NCBI GenBank assembly: GCA_000996205.1
Contig: LBYO01000005.1
Span: 1,728 to 65,727 of the forward strand
Length of the DNA stretch: 64,000 nucleotides
Source of the DNA: Parcubacteria group bacterium GW2011_GWA1_40_21
Lineage (GTDB): Bacteria; Patescibacteriota; Minisyncoccia; Phycocordibacterales; GWA1-40-21
Direction: 5' to 3'
Shown here: positions 6,280-49,605 of the stretch, piece by piece
How the letters are laid out: every line of letters begins with the position of its first letter
Position numbering within the stretch: the first letter of the stretch is position 1
The notes under the pieces: model-generated
What the model was told of the DNA's origin: nothing
Seen by the model: only the letters and a program-made list of their open reading frames with translations
The model's database searches: none
Position numbers and translations under genes: made by a program

Positions 6280-6385
6280 CTTTGAATTACGAAACCCTTG
6301 TTTTCCGTCTTTGCGAGTCGGTACTCCGGCGTGGCAATCCAGAGCTTATCGCGCGTAATCATAGATTGCCACGCTTCTCATAATT
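6280..6385. repeat. MITE family A copy (truncated; left 'ctttgaattacgaaac' end only)
   Basis: about 100 bp nearly identical to the left halves of the copies at 32919 and 48045. Confidence 0.7.
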
Positions 6386-9018: not shown

Positions 9019-9040
9019 TCTTTCATTTTCGAAAAATTTT

Positions 9041-9078
9041 CAACATCCGATGTCCAAATATTTGGACATCGGATGTTG
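9041..9078. repeat. REP-like palindrome dimer flanking the RAYT gene
   Basis: caacatccgatgtccaaatatttggacatcggatgttg is a perfect 38-bp self-complementary sequence. Confidence 0.8.
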
Positions 9079-9107
9079 AAAAATAAGTCATCGTAAAATG
9101 TAAATTC

Positions 9108-9809
9108 TTATTCAAGGGTGAAACCGTTGAAATCACTGGAGCTGAAATTTTTTAGTTCTTGATAAACCGAATTTTTATAACCTGATTCTCCGCCGAAATA
9201 ATCAAGAAAAAAATCTCTTTGAGTAACCGACGGAAAATTCTTTTTGCCCAGATAATCAAGATGACTGCTCCATCGGTATGATTCAAGAAATTTGATAGCG
9301 GAGTTGAGATTTTTAATACTTCGCTCTCTCCACTCCGGTGCATGAAGATCAAGAGGGTTAAAATGGATGTAGTATGGCATAAAAAGAAAATGACGATCTT
9401 CCGTGATTTGTATTGACTTGTATTTTCCTTGAAACAGAGCTCCGACGCGTTCATATTTTTCATTGAAATATTTTGAGTAGCCCATATTGAGTTTCTTCAT
9501 AAATAAAGAAACGCCTTTTTCATTTATCGGAGAAATTAATAGGTGATAATGATTCGGCATCATGCTAAAAGCATGAATTTTCACTAAGCATTTTCTAGGT
9601 CTTGGTGATTTTGTTTTCTCAATCTTTGGACATTCGATGTCCAAAGATTGATTGTAAGATTGGCAAAAACGGTAATTATTCGCATAAACATTATTTTCAT
9701 CATTGAATTCAAATAAATCGTGAACAAAGCGAAAATGATCTTCTTCATCTTGAAAGATTGTCCTTTTGTCAACGCCCCTGTTGAGTATGTGATATAGTCC
9801 TAATTCCAT
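9108..9809 (-). mobile_element. REP-associated tyrosine transposase (RAYT) / IS200-like HuH Y1 transposase
   Basis: HuH motif MPNHYHLLIS and a Y1-transposase-like C-terminus; flanked on both sides by 'ttggacatcggatgtccaa' palindromes. Confidence 0.75.
9624..9646. repeat. REP-like palindrome copy inside the RAYT coding sequence
   Basis: ctttggacattcgatgtccaaag; in frame it encodes SLDIECPKIE. Confidence 0.6.
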
Positions 9810-9829
9810 TTAATAAAAACATTATAATA

Positions 9830-9852
9830 CTTTGGACATCCGATGTCCAAAT
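9830..9852. repeat. REP-like palindrome upstream of RAYT
   Basis: tttggacatccgatgtccaaat. Confidence 0.8.
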
Positions 9853-9891
9853 ATTTTGTTTAAAAAGATAATTTTGTGATAACATTGTGGA

Positions 9892-12341: not shown

Positions 12342-12470
12342 TGTGTGAGCATATCTTCTTTTTTATTGTTGGAGCGAGCATTCTGTTTTTAAAAGCCTTG
12401 CGCAGGAAATTATCCAGCACTTATTTTAGATTTTCAAAATAAGTGCTGGTTTGATTGACGAGCAGAGAAA

Positions 12471-12533
12471 TCCCTCCTCAGTTTTAATCTTAGAAATTTC
12501 TATTTTCCAAAACTGGGGAGGGATATTCGTGCT
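12471..12533. repeat. hairpin element family C ('tccctcctcagtttta...aaaactggggaggga')
   Basis: about 60-bp near-perfect inverted repeat; homologous copies at 21546 (inside rnpB) and 48147 (nested in a MITE). Confidence 0.7.
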
Positions 12534-14418: not shown

Positions 14419-14533
14419 AATATTTTGAATAAGTCCGCATTGTAATAGAAAAATTTAATTTTGTCAAAATTTCGTTAGTTATAAAGTCCATCAAGTTTAT
14501 AAAGTTATAAAGCAAGAGATGATGAAAACCACA

Positions 14534-14567
14534 TTTTGGACATCGGATGTCCAAAATGTCCAAAATA
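14534..14567. repeat. REP-like palindrome copy in the typA-pyrH intergenic region
   Basis: tttggacatcggatgtccaaaatgtccaaaat. Confidence 0.7.
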
Positions 14568-21481: not shown

Positions 21482-21918
21482 CGTCTTTGCGCCGGATAGC
21501 CACTGAGTTCCGACTTGCTCGGAGCTTAGAGGAAAGTCCGAACACTCTCCCTCCCCAGTTTTAGGCTCTCGAAATTTCTATAGTCTAAAACTGGGGAGGG
21601 AAACAGGGTAGCGGGTAACGCCCGTCTGGAGCAATCCAAGAGGTGCGAACAGAGACGCCAAACATCGAAAGATGTTTGGGCGCTTCCGAAAGGAGGCGTA
21701 GTCCAGCTCCAGTTTTGAGAGATTGATTTTTCGATAATTCAAAACTGGGGCTGGGGTGCAACGGCAAAATCCTTACCCGGGTGCAAGGCCGTGTCTCCCG
21801 ATGTAATGTCGGGGGAAGTGCCGCTTGAGTCCAGCGGTAACGCTGGACCTAGATAAATGGCTATACAATTTCGCACAATGCGGAGTAGACAGAATTCGGC
21901 TTATAGGCGCAAAGGCAT
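21482..21918 (+). ncRNA. rnpB: RNase P RNA (bacterial type)
   Basis: conserved GAGGAAAGUCCG (P4 5' strand), GGGUAACGCC, ACAGAAuuCGGCUUA (P4 3' strand); 5' ctttgcgcc pairs with 3' ggcgcaaag (P1). Confidence 0.8.
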
Positions 21919-21920
21919 TA

Positions 21921-21960: not shown

Positions 21961-22127
21961 CCTGTTTGAATGAGGGTTTGAATTGCCGAAAAAGACGAGA
22001 TAGCCAAAATCTCCAAGAAAACCAACCCCTCCCAACCCCCCCCTTTATCAGGGGGAGTTCAGTTTTCCCCCTGACAAGGGGGATTAAGGGGGTTTGAATT
22101 TATTTTACCCTTTTCCAACTGTCAAAT

Positions 22128-24668: not shown

Positions 24669-24886
24669 CCGTGAATTATGAAACTTGTCGAGGCGCGCTG
24701 TTTTCGGGAGGTTTTGAGTCCGGTGCCAGTTTTGATCTATGGAAAATTGCACAAACAAAACTGGTGCTGGACGAAAACTTCAGGATTTTTTAAGCTTCAA
24801 AAAATATGGACATTAAAAACAGCGCGCCGAGTAAGAGTTTCGTGATTTACAAATAGATAATCAGATAATCAATTTTTCTCGCGAAG

Positions 24887-26566: not shown

Positions 26567-26583
26567 TGATTGTAAATTGATAC

Positions 26584-26688
26584 CTTGAATTACGAAATGC
26601 AAAAATTTAGGTCTGGTTGAGCAAAAACATTTAGAAGACAAAGAGGTTTTGCGACCCGAGGACCTAAATTTTTGCATTTCGTAATTCA
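26584..26688. repeat. MITE family B copy ('ttgaattacgaaatgcaaaaattt' TIR)
   Basis: about 24-bp terminal inverted repeats; second copy at 27494. Confidence 0.75.
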
Positions 26689-26804
26689 CAGATTGATAAT
26701 AAAAAAATGGGTCAAGCATAGACACTTGACCCATTTTGCCGCAAAATCCTTTGTAGAAAAAAGGGTATCTGCTCACGACTCTTTTATGCCCCTTGTGTTT
26801 TTTA

Positions 26805-27493: not shown

Positions 27494-27604
27494 CCCCGAA
27501 TTACGAAATGCAAAAATTCAGGTCCTCGGGTTATAAAAGCTATTTGTTTTTTTAAATGTTTTTGCTCAATAGACCTATAAATTTTTGCATTTCGTAATTC
27601 GGGG
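27494..27604. repeat. MITE family B copy 2
   Basis: ccccgaattacgaaatgcaaaaatt...aatttttgcatttcgtaattcgggg. Confidence 0.75.
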
Positions 27605-32852: not shown

Positions 32853-32918
32853 TTTTATCACCGCGACTTTTCGTTCCGTTCTTTATTTCTGTCTCTGCTT
32901 TATAAACTTTATGAACTT

Positions 32919-33061
32919 CTTTGAATTACGAAACCCTCATTTTCCGTCTTTGCGAGCCGGTACTCCGGCGTGGCAATCCAGAGTTTACCGCGCGTAATAA
33001 TGGATTGCTTCGCTTCGCTCGCAAAGACAATGCGGTAATGTGATAGTTTCGTAATTCAAAG
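32919..33061. repeat. MITE family A, complete copy (~143 bp)
   Basis: TIRs ctttgaattacgaaac / gtttcgtaattcaaag; internal ttgcgagc...gctcgcaaag inverted repeat. Confidence 0.8.
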
Positions 33062-33140
33062 TGAACTTGATAACTTTCAACTTATTTGCTTGACTAATCA
33101 TATGGCAATTTGCTAACATAGTGTTTGCTGTTTTAAAGTA

Positions 33141-41627: not shown

Positions 41628-42518
41628 ATGGCAAAGACACTCGCGGCATTCAACAAAATTAATACATTAAGGGAAAGATACTATAAAGCATCTACCGGCA
41701 AGGATGCTCTTATTAAGCTCATTAGCGAAGCGGAAGTTGCCGAACAGGTATACAACTCAAATGCTATTGAAAATAGCACGCTTACTCTCGAAGAGACCGA
41801 AAAAATACTTCTCCAAATTGACTTGGATAGGTTTATTAGCGAGCGGGAAATATTTGAAGCGAAGAATTTAGCGCGCGTAACATCGTATATAGATAAACGA
41901 GCAAAAGAACAAGAACTGAACCTTGATGTAATTTTATCACTTCATAAAATGCTTATTTCAAGTATTCGTGATGATATTGCCGGTAGATTTAGAAAGACCG
42001 GGGAATATGTGCGGGTTGGAAGTCATATTGCTCCAAAATCGGAAGAAGTAATACCGCGACTGGAGAAAATTCTTGCGGAGTATAACGCAAGCAGTCACGA
42101 AAACATTATAAAACGTATTGCTAAACTGCATCTTGCATTTGAGCACACACATCCTTTCTGTGACGGAAATGGCCGTATTGGGCGCGCACTGAATAATTAT
42201 TTACTTATACGAGATGGATATGTGCCAATAAATATAAAATTCATTGATAGAGAAAAGTATTACGACGCATTTAAGGAATTTGATGAGAAAGACAAAACTG
42301 AAATTATGGAAGAGATTGTCGCAAAGTCGCTTACAAATAGTTATCACAAAAGATTAGCGTATTTAGAAGGCAAGAAAATCATGACACTTGTCGATTATGC
42401 GAAAGAAAATAAGTTATCACATTCTAATTTGATAAATAAGGCGACACGCCAAACCATTGAAGCCTTCCTGGAAAAAAATGTTTGGAAAATTGGCATCGAC
42501 AATCACAAAGAAAAATAA
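41628..42518 (+). CDS. Fic/Doc (Fido) family protein
   Basis: canonical Fic motif HPFCDGNGRIGR. Confidence 0.9.
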   Translation: MAKTLAAFNKINTLRERYYKASTGKDALIKLISEAEVAEQVYNSNAIENSTLTLEETEKILLQIDLDRFISEREIFEAKNLARVTSYIDKRAKEQELNLDVILSLHKMLISSIRDDIAGRFRKTGEYVRVGSHIAPKSEEVIPRLEKILAEYNASSHENIIKRIAKLHLAFEHTHPFCDGNGRIGRALNNYLLIRDGYVPINIKFIDREKYYDAFKEFDEKDKTEIMEEIVAKSLTNSYHKRLAYLEGKKIMTLVDYAKENKLSHSNLINKATRQTIEAFLEKNVWKIGIDNHKEK

Positions 42519-42520
42519 TT

Positions 42521-43660
42521 ATGGCAAACAGTAATCTTACAAACGCAAAAAGAGCAAAGAATGACGAGTTTTATACTCAGTTCGGCGATATTCAAAAAGA
42601 GATTGAAGCGTATTTGGAATACAACCCCAATGTATTTCGTGGCAAGGTTGTGTATTGCAATTGCGACGATCCGTTTGAGAGTAATTTTTTTCGCTATTTT
42701 GTGCTCAATTTCAACAAACTTGGATTGAAACAGCTTATCACCACGAGCTATAAGCCCTCGCCTGTCGCCAACACGCAACTGGGATTGTTTGGCGATGATA
42801 AAACTCTCACAAAATCAAAAAGCCTGCCTGCCGGTAGGCAGGGCCGTCCTAAGGTAAACGCCAACAAATTTATTGTGAGCGATGTGCGCGACATAGACGG
42901 CGACGGCGAGTTCAACTTAAGGGATGTCGCCAAGCAGTTAAGGGCAAACAAACACAACGAATGGACGCCACTTGAAGGCGACGGCGACTTCCGTAGCGAT
43001 GAATGTATAAATTTGCTAAAACAATTCGACATCGTCGTAACAAATCCGCCGTTCAGTCTATTCCGCGAATATGTTAAGCAACTTTTTGATAATAACAAGA
43101 AGTTTGTGATTATCGGTAATATGAACGCTATTACTTATAAAGAAATATTTCCCTTGATAAAGGAAAATAAAATGTGGCTTGGTAATGGCTTTCACGCTGG
43201 CAATGCTTATTTTTCCACCCCTCTAGCTAAAGAATACGGGGAGGGAGTTTATATGCCAGAAACCGGTTTAGTAAAATTTAGAAATATTTGTTGGTTTACT
43301 AACTTAGACCATGGGCGCCGTCATCAACCATTACCGCTTATGACAATGAAAGAAAATTTGAAATACAGCAAACACAAAGAAATTAAGGGCAAAAAGTCGT
43401 ATGATAAATATGACAATTACGATGCCATAGAAGTTTCATTTACTGATGCAATTCCAAGTGATTATGATGGTGTAATGGGCGTGCCGATTAGTTTTTTGGA
43501 TAAATACAATCCTGATCAGTTTGAGATTATTGGAATGGCAGAAGATAACGGCAAGGGTTTTTCGGGTGGAATTTGGGACGGCAAAAATCCGCATTGTGTC
43601 ATAAATGGAGAGAATAAATTTAAGAGAATTTTTATTAAGCATAAGAAAGTTGGGGAATAA
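42521..43660 (+). CDS. N6-adenine DNA methyltransferase, M.EcoRI-like
   Basis: N-terminal KNDEFYTQFGDIQKEIEAYL and VVYCNCDDPFESNFFRYF recall the M.EcoRI N-terminus; catalytic FDIVVTNPPFS (NPPF). Confidence 0.6.
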   Translation: MANSNLTNAKRAKNDEFYTQFGDIQKEIEAYLEYNPNVFRGKVVYCNCDDPFESNFFRYFVLNFNKLGLKQLITTSYKPSPVANTQLGLFGDDKTLTKSKSLPAGRQGRPKVNANKFIVSDVRDIDGDGEFNLRDVAKQLRANKHNEWTPLEGDGDFRSDECINLLKQFDIVVTNPPFSLFREYVKQLFDNNKKFVIIGNMNAITYKEIFPLIKENKMWLGNGFHAGNAYFSTPLAKEYGEGVYMPETGLVKFRNICWFTNLDHGRRHQPLPLMTMKENLKYSKHKEIKGKKSYDKYDNYDAIEVSFTDAIPSDYDGVMGVPISFLDKYNPDQFEIIGMAEDNGKGFSGGIWDGKNPHCVINGENKFKRIFIKHKKVGE

Positions 43661-43670
43661 AAATGAATTT

Positions 43671-44390
43671 ATGCAAAAAGAAATTAAAAAATATATTAAA
43701 TATATTGAAAAAAACTTATTATATATAAGTTTAATAATTTTATTTATCCTACTTTTTTCATATGTATTTTCTAGTTGTTTTAGATTTGTTCTATATTTCT
43801 TAAATATTGAACCCAATTTTCTAGTTGTTTTTATTACTGCGATTACTTTAATATTTTCGGCTATAGAGAATAAAAAAGAAAGAAAATATAATTTTAATTT
43901 AAATTTAAAAAACTCAGTAGAAGAAAAAGCAGCTATTGTTATAGGAAAATTATTTATAATGATGAATGATTCTCAAAATTATTTACAGACAATAAAGGAT
44001 ATAAAAAATGCAATAGAAAAAAATAAAAAGTTTGTTGATATGAATAATGTTTTATCCTTAGATCTTCTTAAAAAAGACAGAGAACTTGTTGGATCATATA
44101 TAGTAATTTATTTTTCTCAGTATATTCAAAATGATTGGAATTTAATGGTGGATAAAATTAATAAAATTGGAACAAATTGTTCAATGGCAATGACTAATTA
44201 TAACGAAAATTATAATCTTATTAATACGGCTGGTTTTGAAAATGAAACATTGTCTAATATAGATAATACGATAAAAGAATCAGAAATTTTAAATGAAGAG
44301 ATTTATGAATTAACAGAAAAAATGAAAAATACATTATTATCTATTATTGTAGAAAATAATAATAAAATGAAAGAAAAATATATAAATTAA
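43671..44390 (+). CDS. hypothetical membrane protein encoded by an extremely AT-rich segment
   Basis: ORF 43605..44390 trimmed to its second Met; two TM helices, then a Lys/Asn/Ile-rich domain; local GC far below the window average. Confidence 0.35.
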   Translation: MQKEIKKYIKYIEKNLLYISLIILFILLFSYVFSSCFRFVLYFLNIEPNFLVVFITAITLIFSAIENKKERKYNFNLNLKNSVEEKAAIVIGKLFIMMNDSQNYLQTIKDIKNAIEKNKKFVDMNNVLSLDLLKKDRELVGSYIVIYFSQYIQNDWNLMVDKINKIGTNCSMAMTNYNENYNLINTAGFENETLSNIDNTIKESEILNEEIYELTEKMKNTLLSIIVENNNKMKEKYIN

Positions 44391-45415: not shown

Positions 45416-46585
45416 ATGAAAACAATTTTAAAAACCGGCATCACTGTCAAAGATATTTGTGAAGGGTTCGTCTATAACGAACTGGAGGGCAAGGGGCTAT
45501 TTGGTTTGTCTGGCAAGCTCACCATTCAGCCGGAGTATCAGCGCAACTATATCTATGCCTCCGACGGCGGGAAAAGAGAGATGGCTGTTATTGAATCAAT
45601 ACTCAAAGGTTACCCAATAGGCTTGATCTATTTTAATAAGGTTTCTGAAAACAATCTGGAGGTCTTGGACGGGCAACAACGGATCACCAGTGTTGGACGT
45701 TTTGTGACTGACAAATTTGCTATCAAAGACGAAAACGGCATGGAGCAATATTTTGGCGGTATAGCAAAAGACAAGCAAGTCAAGATTTTGGAAACGAAAC
45801 TGCTCATTTATGAATGCGAAGGCACAGAAAGCCAGATAAAAGAGTGGTTTAGGACTATCAATATAGCTGGAGTTCCGCTCGTCCCACAGGAATTGTTAAA
45901 TGCGATCTATTCCGGACCATTTGTTACTCTAGGTAAAGAGGAGTTCAGCAACAGCCAAAATGCCAATATTCAAAAATGGAGCGCGTACATAAAGGGCAGC
46001 GCAAACCGACAGGCATTTTTTGAGAGAGCTTTAGACTGGGCGAGTAAGGGAGATATTGATGATTACATGAGTCTTCATCGCAACGACAAAAATATCAATG
46101 AGTTAAAAAATTATTTCAACAGTGTGATTGATTGGATCTCTAGTGTATTTACCGGTGTAGAAAGCGAGATGTGCGGACTTGAGTGGGGACGACTGTATGC
46201 GGAGTATCACAAGAAAGCTTATGATCCTGCTAAAGTGTCAGATGAGGTTAGTAAACTGTATGGCGATCCATATATCAAAAACCGCAAAGGTATCTTTGAA
46301 TTTATTCTAGGTGGTTCTGTTGATACAAGATTACTTGAGGTTAGATTTTTTGATGAAGCAACTAAAAAAGCGGTTTATACAACACAAACCGCTAAAGCAG
46401 AGAAAAAAGGTGAATCAAACTGTCCGCATTGTGCCATTGGACATGATGCCAACAAAGAAAAAATTTGGAGTCTAGGCGAAATGGATGCCGACCATGTAAC
46501 GGCTTGGAGCAAGGGCGGCACAACCTCGGCTAAAAATTGTGAGATGTTGTGCAAGACGCACAACCGAGCAAAAGGAAATCGGTAA
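45416..46585 (+). CDS. GmrSD-like type IV restriction enzyme (DUF262 ParB-like NTPase/nickase domain + C-terminal HNH nuclease)
   Basis: DUF262 signature DGQQR; C-terminal CPHC...DADHV...N..LC..HN HNH motif. Confidence 0.75.
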
Positions 46586-47629: not shown

Positions 47630-47980
47630 ATGCCTAAAAAACTAACTAGGTTGACTAGAAGCAATTGGTGGTCTGAGCTTGGTAATTCAGGATTGTCCGA
47701 TGATCTTATCACATTACTTCGTTCAATCGTTTCTGATTATTTAAACGGGGCGATGGGCGTGAGGGCTCCAGATGCAAATTTTATAACAAACGAATTGCTG
47801 AAGAATCACCTAATGGAAGGTTTTATGGTAGATAATTGTTTTTTTGATGTTGTTGTGTTTGCACCCAAATCTAATAAGGGTAAAAGTAAAGTTAAGGGTG
47901 GAATGCGCCGCCATCGGAGCTTCTATAAGATCGTAGAAAGACACCCAGGGTACAATACGCTGACATTAAAGGATCTCTGA
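47630..47980 (+). CDS. hypothetical protein with strong Shine-Dalgarno
   Basis: aaggaggtg 8 nt upstream of the ATG; basic C-terminus. Confidence 0.4.
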   Translation: MPKKLTRLTRSNWWSELGNSGLSDDLITLLRSIVSDYLNGAMGVRAPDANFITNELLKNHLMEGFMVDNCFFDVVVFAPKSNKGKSKVKGGMRRHRSFYKIVERHPGYNTLTLKDL

Positions 47981-47994
47981 TCATGAAAGGATAA

Positions 47995-48038
47995 ATGCCG
48001 CACCAATTGAATTGAATATTGGTGCGGCATTTCTTATT
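47995..48038 (+). terminator. rho-independent terminator
   Basis: 13-bp perfect stem atgccgcaccaat/attggtgcggcat, followed by ttcttatt. Confidence 0.7.
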
Positions 48039-48044
48039 CAGTCA

Positions 48045-48245
48045 CTTTGAATTACGAAACCTTCGTTTTCCGTCATTGCGAGCCGGTACTCCGGCGTGGC
48101 AATCCAGAGTTTACCGCGCGCAATAATGGATTGCTTCGCTCCGCTCGCCCCTCCCCAGTTTTAAGTTTTGGAAATATCCAGAATCTAAAACTGGGGAGGG
48201 GCTCGCAAAGACAATGCGGCAATATGATAGTTTCGTAATTCAAAG
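48045..48245. repeat. MITE family A copy carrying a nested family-C hairpin insertion (48147..48200)
   Basis: same TIRs and internal sequence as 32919..33061, but interrupted at ...ccgctcgc|cccctccccagtttt...aaaactggggaggg|gctcgcaaag with duplicated gctcgc. Confidence 0.8.
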
Positions 48246-48353
48246 TCAGTCATTAAAATTTGATAACTGATTGCATCATGTTTAATATTAAAAACAAAAG
48301 CCACCCTTTAAAGATGGCTTTATAGGCACGGTAATTTTCTTCTTTCAAGAAGA

Positions 48354-49063: not shown

Positions 49064-49293
49064 TTTTCTGCTGAAAATTTTATACTCCGCCCTTCGAATC
49101 CTGCCCGTCCCGATGTTCATCGGGACTCTGGGCGGACAATTCCGCTTCGCTGCATTGTCCGCCCAGCAGTAATTTCTCGCCTACAGCGCGTGATTTTCTT
49201 GTTTCGCCGACTCAACATAGAAAATCCTTCGAATCCTGACGAGAGCCAAGCAGTTGGCTCTCTCTGAGCGGACAATTCCGCTTCGCTGCATTG
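49064..49293. repeat. tRNA-Lys-associated modular repeat region (two tandem units)
   Basis: two copies of gcggacaattccgcttcgctgcattgtccgcccagcag (38 bp; includes the tRNA 3' acceptor strand), two ccttcgaatcctg T-arm-like fragments, and a ttttctgctgaaaa hairpin. Confidence 0.7.
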
Positions 49294-49366
49294 TCCGCCC
49301 AGCAGGATTCGAACCTGCGACCAATCGCTTAAGAGGCGACTGCTCTACCAACTGAGCTATAGGCGG
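49294..49366 (-). tRNA. tRNA-Lys (anticodon CTT)
   Basis: manual fold of the minus strand: acceptor ccgccta/tgggcgg, D-arm gctcagttggtagagc, anticodon loop ctCTTaa, T-arm gcaggttcgaatcctgc; no encoded CCA. Confidence 0.8.
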
Positions 49367-49605
49367 ATTTTTATAAAAATAGGACTTGCGCATTTGGATG
49401 CAGTTCGAGGCGCGAGCTCGGCTTGCGACCAAGCTGTATTATTATACTGCGCGGGAGCAAACGAGCGAAGCAACGAAGAAATGCGCCGAACGCACAAGTC
49501 CTACAAAAATCTAGCAAATTTAGGACATAGTGGCAAATTTAAAACCCCACCTTTAAAACCCCACCGCTTTGAGTTTGCGATGGGGCTTTGTTCTTAAAAT
49601 ACGAT

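Follow-up and report, generated by a model that had tools for sequence, protein, structure and literature searches.

A 64,000-nucleotide stretch of a Parcubacteria genome (the window) contains at 48045-48245 a small repeat which carries a palindrome, and the same six nucleotides, GCTCGC, stand on both sides of that palindrome. This locus raises the question of whether the palindrome is mobile in its own right and, if it is, whether it enters DNA in the manner of a transposon which duplicates its target site. The first-pass annotation had taken it for a hairpin of one family (family C) inserted into a MITE of another (family A), with GCTCGC as a putative 6-bp target-site duplication (TSD). The features at the locus and the family-A copy used for comparison are as follows; none is assigned to a strand.

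48045..48245, family-A MITE with the hairpin; 16-bp TIRs CTTTGAATTACGAAAC and GTTTCGTAATTCAAAG; 95% identical to 32919-33061
48038..48044, left 7-bp TSD of the MITE, TCAGTCA; single in the empty orthologous site of locus L143 (TGACTGA, other strand)
48246..48252, right 7-bp TSD of the MITE, TCAGTCA; from the sequence read, the alignment and the empty site in L143
48149..48200, nested copy of the family-C hairpin, 52 nt; 74.7 bits, E 1e-18 with covariance model R1; missing from five other family-A copies
48143..48148, GCTCGC, left copy; two in the filled copy against one in the C-free copies, from alignments
48201..48206, GCTCGC, right copy; its 6 nt open the 3' arm of the internal stem of the MITE, GCTCGCAAAGAC
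32919..33061, intact family-A MITE without the hairpin; TSD TGAACTT at 32912-32918 and 33062-33068

Family A is a bona fide MITE. Every complete copy has its own 7-bp TSD, namely TCAGTCA at 48045, TGAACTT at 32919, TCAATAA in L113 and TAATTTC in L087 (L-prefixed labels denote the genome and metagenome loci compared with the window). At the orthologous loci L143 and L145, with the flanking TPR gene, the entire MITE is missing and the target is single (TGACTGA in L143); protein identity at L143 is 88%. These two loci prove the 7-bp TSD of the MITE and not the order in which hairpin and MITE arrived, and they were set aside as sites for dating the hairpin. Another locus, L024, has the left flank in common and no hairpin, and it was not used as an empty site because it is a recombinant or a chimera: its right flank differs, a TSD to match is missing, and its MITE continues in the second half as another copy. 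This locus (ENA ERZ27254726 k141_405462) reads through the left flank and about the first 60 nt of the 48045 MITE, then through another A copy into a different right flank; either MITE copies of a related strain have recombined, or the contig is an assembly chimera. MITEs with the common TIR (C/T)TGAATTAYGAAA(C/T), differing interiors and 7-bp TSDs (ATTGATA at 26583) form a superfamily with members in the window at 6280-6377, 24670-24851, 26583-26691, 27494-27604, 32919-33061 and 48045-48245; no transposase matching this superfamily was found in the window.

By Pfam the window is an ordinary chromosomal segment (ribosomal proteins, RpoA, DnaK/DnaJ/GrpE, IF-2, ClpB, AlaRS, RNR) with restriction-modification and defence genes as well and a GC content of 39%. 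A protein of 116 aa, encoded at 47630-47977, is present on Rifle groundwater metagenome contigs, and the adjoining 177-aa TPR protein is identical to UT90_C0005G0052 (NCBI) from Parcubacteria group bacterium GW2011_GWA1_40_21.

Alignment by MAFFT of 48030-48260 with 32905-33075 gave one gap of 58 columns, and an identical gap was obtained against four further C-free family-A copies (L113:3299, L024, L087:9105 and the partial L113:4688). The copy at 6280 is truncated, stops short of the insertion point and was uninformative. The 58 nt which the MITE at 48045-48245 has in excess of the five other copies consist of the 52-nt hairpin and an additional GCTCGC, and the duplication is real because the C-free copies carry GCTCGC only once. 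The nested insertion is therefore borne out, and so is the duplicated GCTCGC; the two MITE copies read as the annotation had written them. The filled site is no assembly artefact: nine of the Rifle contigs, which come from different JGI and ENA assemblies, are equal to the window at 380 of 380 positions downstream of the gene for the 116-aa protein, the whole filled element included.

When the MITE is folded, an internal 12-bp stem is formed (GTCTTTGCGAGC/GCTCGCAAAGAC). GCTCGC opens the 3' arm of this stem, and the hairpin therefore lies in its loop (GTCATTGCGAGC...GCTCGCAAAGAC), at the loop-stem junction. It had been considered that GCTCGC might simply be part of the internal repeat of the MITE; it does belong to the 3' stem arm, but this alone leaves its second copy unexplained. 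The full palindrome of the nested copy covers 56 nt (48147-48202): GC is self-complementary, and the two GCTCGC copies therefore pair with each other at their GC ends. The span first given for the insert, 48147-48200, thus encloses a real hairpin in asymmetric limits. Among the matches listed, the nearest interiors to that of the nested copy are those of L133:967 and L118, with 22-23 of 24 positions equal, and in both of them GCTCG follows the hairpin. This would be compatible with a copying event guided by microhomology, although it is no proof of one.

The repeat to which the nested hairpin belongs is dispersed and non-coding, 52-56 nt long and almost perfectly palindromic. The family-C consensus is CCC[TC/AG]CCCCAGTTTTR-N6-8-GAAATTTC-N6-8-YAAAACTGGGG[GA/CT]GGG; 52 distinct copies align to the consensus nCCCCTCCCCAGTTTTAGnTTnTnGAAATTTCTAnAnnnTAAAACTGGGGAGGGGn, and its two arms, CCCTCCCCAGTTTTA and TAAAACTGGGGAGGG, form an inverted repeat. 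In the 52-copy alignment 90% of the cells are paired, and changes on both sides occur in 13 of 26 pairs. Covariation is notable in the outer stem (CT/AG vs AG/CT) and exceeds that of shuffled and slid controls. Outside the 11-nt arms the flanks keep complementarity over a median of 5 bp and up to 16 bp. A covariance model, R1, was built from this alignment. It found five copies in the window, at 48147-48202 (74.7 bits), 21547-21602 (70), 21701-21756 (58.6), 12470-12524 (55.5) and 24718-24772, of which the last and diverged one had not been among the four obtained by repeat grouping without a covariance model; further diverged copies were found by R1 in the collected loci. These scores place the nested insert in one family with the copies at 12471 and in rnpB, as had been proposed. 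The two copies of the window that lie neither in rnpB nor in family A are, again without strand:

12471..12522, intergenic family-C copy, central in another palindromic repeat; 55.5 bits; allele series L041, L112, L106, L127
24718..24772, fifth and diverged copy of family C, within a second MITE (~24670-24851); 35.3 bits, E 2e-7

Groundwater Parcubacteria/Paceibacteria genome and metagenome loci yielded at least 54 distinct copies whose flanks could be used. With one genome scanned per species, MAGs of Paceibacterota, Zambryskibacteria and other Patescibacteria were found to carry the hairpin; a metagenome scan found at least 116 loci, mostly from groundwater, and the hairpin pattern had 0 matches in viral contigs. 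Palindromes of a cyanobacterium and of Elusimicrobiota were set aside as unrelated, having only the 11-nt arms in common. No description of family C was found in the literature searched. A palindrome with C/G runs (ccctcccaaccccccccTTTATCAGGGGGAG...CCCCCTGACAAGGGGGATTAAGGGGG) at 22020-22095, downstream of rnpB, is a weak match to the family-C model (17.5 bits).

Two of the copies in the window lie in the gene for RNase P RNA, as the annotation had stated for the one at 21546:

21484..21919, + strand, RNase P RNA gene (rnpB), type A, host of two hairpin copies; RF00010 99.4 bits, E 7.8e-31
21549..21600, + strand, family-C hairpin between P5 and P7 (P5.1 position); 70 bits; placed by Rfam alignment
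21703..21754, + strand, family-C-like hairpin at the P14 position; 58.6 bits

The rnpB genes of the window, L113, L033 and L133 have near-identical cores and differ at four positions. At the P5.1 position the hairpin is present in the window, L113 and L033, and a 24-nt hairpin is present in L133; the relatives L133, L132 and L044 have a short hairpin alone there. At P14 the window has the family-C-like hairpin; the P14 hairpin of the remaining genes measures 22 nt and has a loop of four nucleotides (GCAA in L113 and L133, GAAA in L033). The distribution is the other way round at P16/17, where the window keeps a native 21-nt hairpin and family C is found in L113, L033 and L133. The P19 position lies between the 3' strands of P2 and P4; a 19-nt hairpin is found there in the window, family C in L033 and L133, and another long hairpin (CCAGCACCTATTTT...), with a relative at window 12414-12449, in L113. 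The boundaries are base-identical at all four positions and nothing is duplicated. In more distant rnpB genes the hairpin was found at the P13/14, P18 and P19 positions and, judged from the flanks alone, at P3 in L100.

With 99.4 bits against an Rfam gathering score of 100, the rnpB of the window is missed by default annotation, and the two inserted hairpins are probably responsible for most of this shortfall. Reports exist of CPR RNase P RNAs that are divergent, have extended helices, score below Rfam thresholds and needed 'extensive manual refolding' (PMC8172020), and family C probably explains part of the sub-threshold scores among CPR rnpB genes. It should be noted here that a second hairpin family, 'D' (CCAGCACYTATTTT...AAAATARGTGCTGG), at window 12414-12449 and L113:4276-4373, uses the same positions as family C. 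It forms P19 of rnpB in L113, and in the window it takes the first hairpin position of the E-type repeat, which is held by family C in L112 and by a 101-nt variant in L041.

The usual site of family C is the tip or centre of a pre-existing hairpin, be it an RNA helix, the centre of a MITE or a terminator-like palindrome. According to Rfam, hosts include 16S rRNA (L003, L009, L014, L057 and L093, where the hairpin is the apex of h44), 23S rRNA (L051) and a group I intron (L016). The hairpin is also found in the centres of palindromic repeats of B-type (GTCATTCCCCC..GGGGGAATCC), F-type (TIR GGACTTACACAATTGG) and E-type, and at the tips of terminator-like palindromes in L001, L050, L091 and L136. 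Assignment of the context in L043, L055 and L087 to 16S h44 proved to be wrong, and after deletion of the hairpin still no tRNA was found there. In two protein genes a hairpin-bearing MITE lies in frame and leaves the reading frame open: in uvrC (L101:207-1637, minus strand), between the GIY-YIG and UVR domains, and in an RNase H gene (L038:492-1415, plus strand), whose profile is split at 57/58. Residence in these genes is that of a passenger in larger MITEs. Family C is a small dispersed palindromic repeat, unusual in occupying helices of essential RNAs.

A MITE-like repeat of F-type (TIR GGACTTGYGCRTTCGG) without the hairpin lies at ~49375-49520, beside tRNA-Lys (49293-49366, minus strand). 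Copies of F-type were tried as a filled/empty pair, C-free ones (window ~49375-49520, L043 and L033) against the hairpin-bearing L133, L118 and L038, and were rejected; the comparison is not clean because the interiors of the C-free copies differ throughout. In the same region a 44-nt direct repeat (CTCTGRGCGGACAATTCCGCTTCGCTGCATTGTCCGCCCAGCAG), 98% identical, is present at 49126-49169 and 49262-49305, and the second of these runs into tRNA-Lys at its 3' end.

If the 6-bp duplication were a trait of the element, it should recur at other copies. Direct repeats abutting the element were scanned in the 54 distinct copies at offsets of 0-9 nt from the arms. A 6-nt repeat was found at the nested copy only (1/54) and 5-nt repeats at three copies, at other offsets; 50 of the 54 have no flanking direct repeat of at least 4 nt. 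Four copies with repeats of at least 5 nt stand against 0.6 +/- 0.8 expected from shuffled flank pairs. Filled and empty sites were also compared. One comparison shows a duplication and six others do not (four rnpB positions, the MITE at 24670-24851 and L039); in these six the hairpin stands in place of a short native hairpin or of 7-12 nt. C-free homologues of the MITE at 24670-24851, in L034 and L087, have CGCGGCGGCGCG at the place of the hairpin with no duplication, and in the L039 repeat the unfilled copy (5104) has GTCTCCA where the filled copy (7188) has the hairpin. A fixed 5-6 bp TSD is thus not supported as a trait of family C, and the first-pass expectation of further 5-6 bp flanking duplications came down to the three 5-nt repeats; the refuting case named in that annotation thus largely holds.

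Family C has clearly been dispersed at the DNA level, as it occupies many unrelated sites and is present or absent between near-identical rnpB genes. The nested copy had been offered as direct evidence of mobility; dispersal and nesting hold, and on a broader basis than that single site, whereas the mechanism of copying is something we infer. The strands were compared as well. In RNA genes the sense strand folds better in most copies, but the bias of G.T versus A.C mismatches is weak there (28/34, p 0.15) and nil outside RNA genes (72/103, p 0.9). Moreover, L130 has the hairpin interior in the opposite orientation to that found in L133, L118 and L038, which carry the same MITE. In the absence of a mismatch strand bias, and with an interior that can be turned round, family C therefore acts as a DNA palindrome outside RNA genes.

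Taken together, family C is probably a small palindromic repeat that enters the loops or tips of hairpins, and not a classical MITE that makes a TSD. It would spread as DNA, with hairpin loops or tips as the places into which it is copied, and two routes can be proposed: copying between hairpins templated by repair or replication (template switching or gene conversion), which we slightly favour, and the action of a hairpin-specific enzyme such as a HUH/Y1-type transposase; cut-and-paste transposition with a fixed TSD would be a less likely route. The GCTCGC duplication would then have arisen incidentally, in a single event at a loop-stem junction. In RNA genes, copies may persist because a self-contained peripheral helix leaves the fold undisturbed. 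Against this proposal it has to be said that the one clean paralogous insertion, the nested copy, has a 6-bp duplication as expected of a staggered-cut transposase, and that flanking repeats of at least 5 nt are slightly above chance (4 vs 0.6 copies). The rnpB 'replacements' could be old insertions which selection remodelled and homologous recombination later exchanged between strains, and if so, they would say little about the primary insertion step.

No donor copy, enzyme, intermediate or partner gene for family C was found in the window and the collected loci. The window does have a single Y1/IS200-like gene (9108-9809, minus strand; PF01797, 37 bits) with the motifs NHYHLL and YIHFNP. Palindromes TTTGGACATCSGATGTCCAAA lie on both sides of it in a REP/RAYT-like arrangement, at 9033-9085, 9620-9650, 9826-9856 and 14530-14560. 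This transposase was rejected as the mobiliser of family C, its flanking palindromes (GGACATCSGATGTCC) being unrelated to the hairpin; tblastn found no further Y1 genes in the loci.

That the hairpin is after all a classical MITE, a tiny non-autonomous transposon whose arms are TIRs and which is moved in trans by a transposase making a staggered cut and hence a 6-bp TSD, would explain GCTCGC on both sides in the filled A copy and once in the C-free copies, the inverted-repeat arms and the 5-nt repeats at three other copies. We consider it quite unlikely, in view of the 50 copies without a flanking repeat of 4 nt or more and of the six filled/empty comparisons in which the duplication is missing. 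In addition, 815 kb of loci contained no longer element with family-C termini and a coding region and almost no unpaired arms, and the window encodes no DDE transposase. Loss of the hairpin in place of its gain is also conceivable: family A could originally have had the hairpin between two GCTCGC, and the other copies could have lost it by slippage. A palindrome enclosed by 6-bp direct repeats is a typical deletion substrate and exactly 58 nt would have been removed, but all five C-free copies, including the 81%-diverged L087, show the single GCTCGC (or ACCTCGC) state and, among the matches listed, the filled state occurs at the 48045-48245 locus only, which makes this order of events very improbable.

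Selection for a function in RNA has also to be weighed. The hairpin could be a structural or protein-binding element, or a stalk for RNase III, which is kept for its role in rnpB and rRNA, the other copies being incidental. Its sites at helix tips in rnpB, 16S, 23S and a group I intron, the better folding of the sense strand in most RNA-gene copies and the strong covariation of the stem all argue for this, yet every rnpB position lacks the hairpin in some sister gene, and the hairpin is also carried in frame by MITEs within uvrC and RNase H and sits in intergenic palindromes. With a strand bias that is weak in RNA genes and nil elsewhere, and an interior that can be flipped, such a module is very unlikely to be the explanation. 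A bolder proposal, which we regard as unlikely, is that families C and D (CCAGCACYTATTTT...) together make up a mobile RNA-helix cassette. A dedicated mechanism, at the level of DNA or RNA, would direct it to hairpin tips, and in this way peripheral helices of essential non-coding RNAs would repeatedly be installed, swapped and removed throughout Paceibacteria. If it were true, the RNAs affected would be RNase P RNA (P3, P5.1, P13/14, P16/17, P18, P19), 16S h44 and 23S rRNA, and 'expansion segments' would still be arising from the cassette, possibly with IVS-like processing.

Family C, read here as a palindromic repeat that enters hairpins, resembles several known systems in part. Like REP/REPIN-RAYT elements it is a short non-coding imperfect palindrome present in many copies, nearly all without target duplication, and able to form single-strand hairpins, and a Y1_Tnp gene is present in the window. 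However, its consensus begins CCCT or CCAG and has no GTAG/CGTC head, the Y1 gene at 9108-9809 is flanked by another palindrome, and family C is found within RNA and protein genes besides intergenic sites. With bacterial MITEs (family A, Correia, Nezha) it has in common that it is small, non-coding and dispersed, has inverted-repeat arms and takes part in mutual nesting; it differs in that there is no consistent TSD, that the whole element is one palindrome and that no matching autonomous IS was found in the window and 815 kb of loci. Family A, in contrast, has clean 7-bp TSDs at every copy checked. Family C thus has neither the regular TSD that defines a MITE nor the GTAG/CGTC head and cognate RAYT that define REP/RAYT elements.

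Rickettsia palindromic elements are about 100-150 bp long, restricted to Rickettsia and mostly described in protein genes. They too are palindromic repeats of a reduced-genome bacterium which are tolerated in genes, as the MITE-borne hairpin is in uvrC and RNase H, but they have no sequence relation to family C. The IVSs of 23S and 16S rRNA (Salmonella, Leptospira, Coxiella; PMC4990558 for Coxiella) are extended stem-loops which replace the tip of a helix, come and go between close relatives and have no TSD, as is the case with family C at the h44 apex in L093 and at the rnpB positions. IVSs are limited to rRNA helices, are often longer and in some cases have an ORF, whereas family C occurs also in rnpB, introns, MITEs and intergenic sites; excision by RNase III is known for IVSs. 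Mitochondrial GC clusters or double-hairpin elements such as yeast GC42 (PMC4478555) are likewise hairpins of 40-50 nt in compact genomes, and for them cut-and-paste was judged insufficient as the sole mechanism and 'merger and shuffling' of palindromes was invoked. They differ from family C in being organellar and in their unrelated sequence, and GC42 differs further in duplicating a defined target, AG.

Small palindromic repeats as such are known, but one that supplies interchangeable helices to CPR RNase P RNA and rRNA was not found described in the literature searched. The natural presence/absence pairs can be used for testing the growth of structured RNAs by helix insertion, and masking of family C should help the detection of ncRNAs in CPR genomes. 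As a minor observation on the surroundings of the nested copy, an EcoRI-type adenine methyltransferase, followed by an unassigned 261-aa ORF (possibly the cognate endonuclease), lies within 42482-44390 and 45416-46585, and together with nearby RhuM, GmrSD-HNH and Fic genes it appears to form a small defence island.
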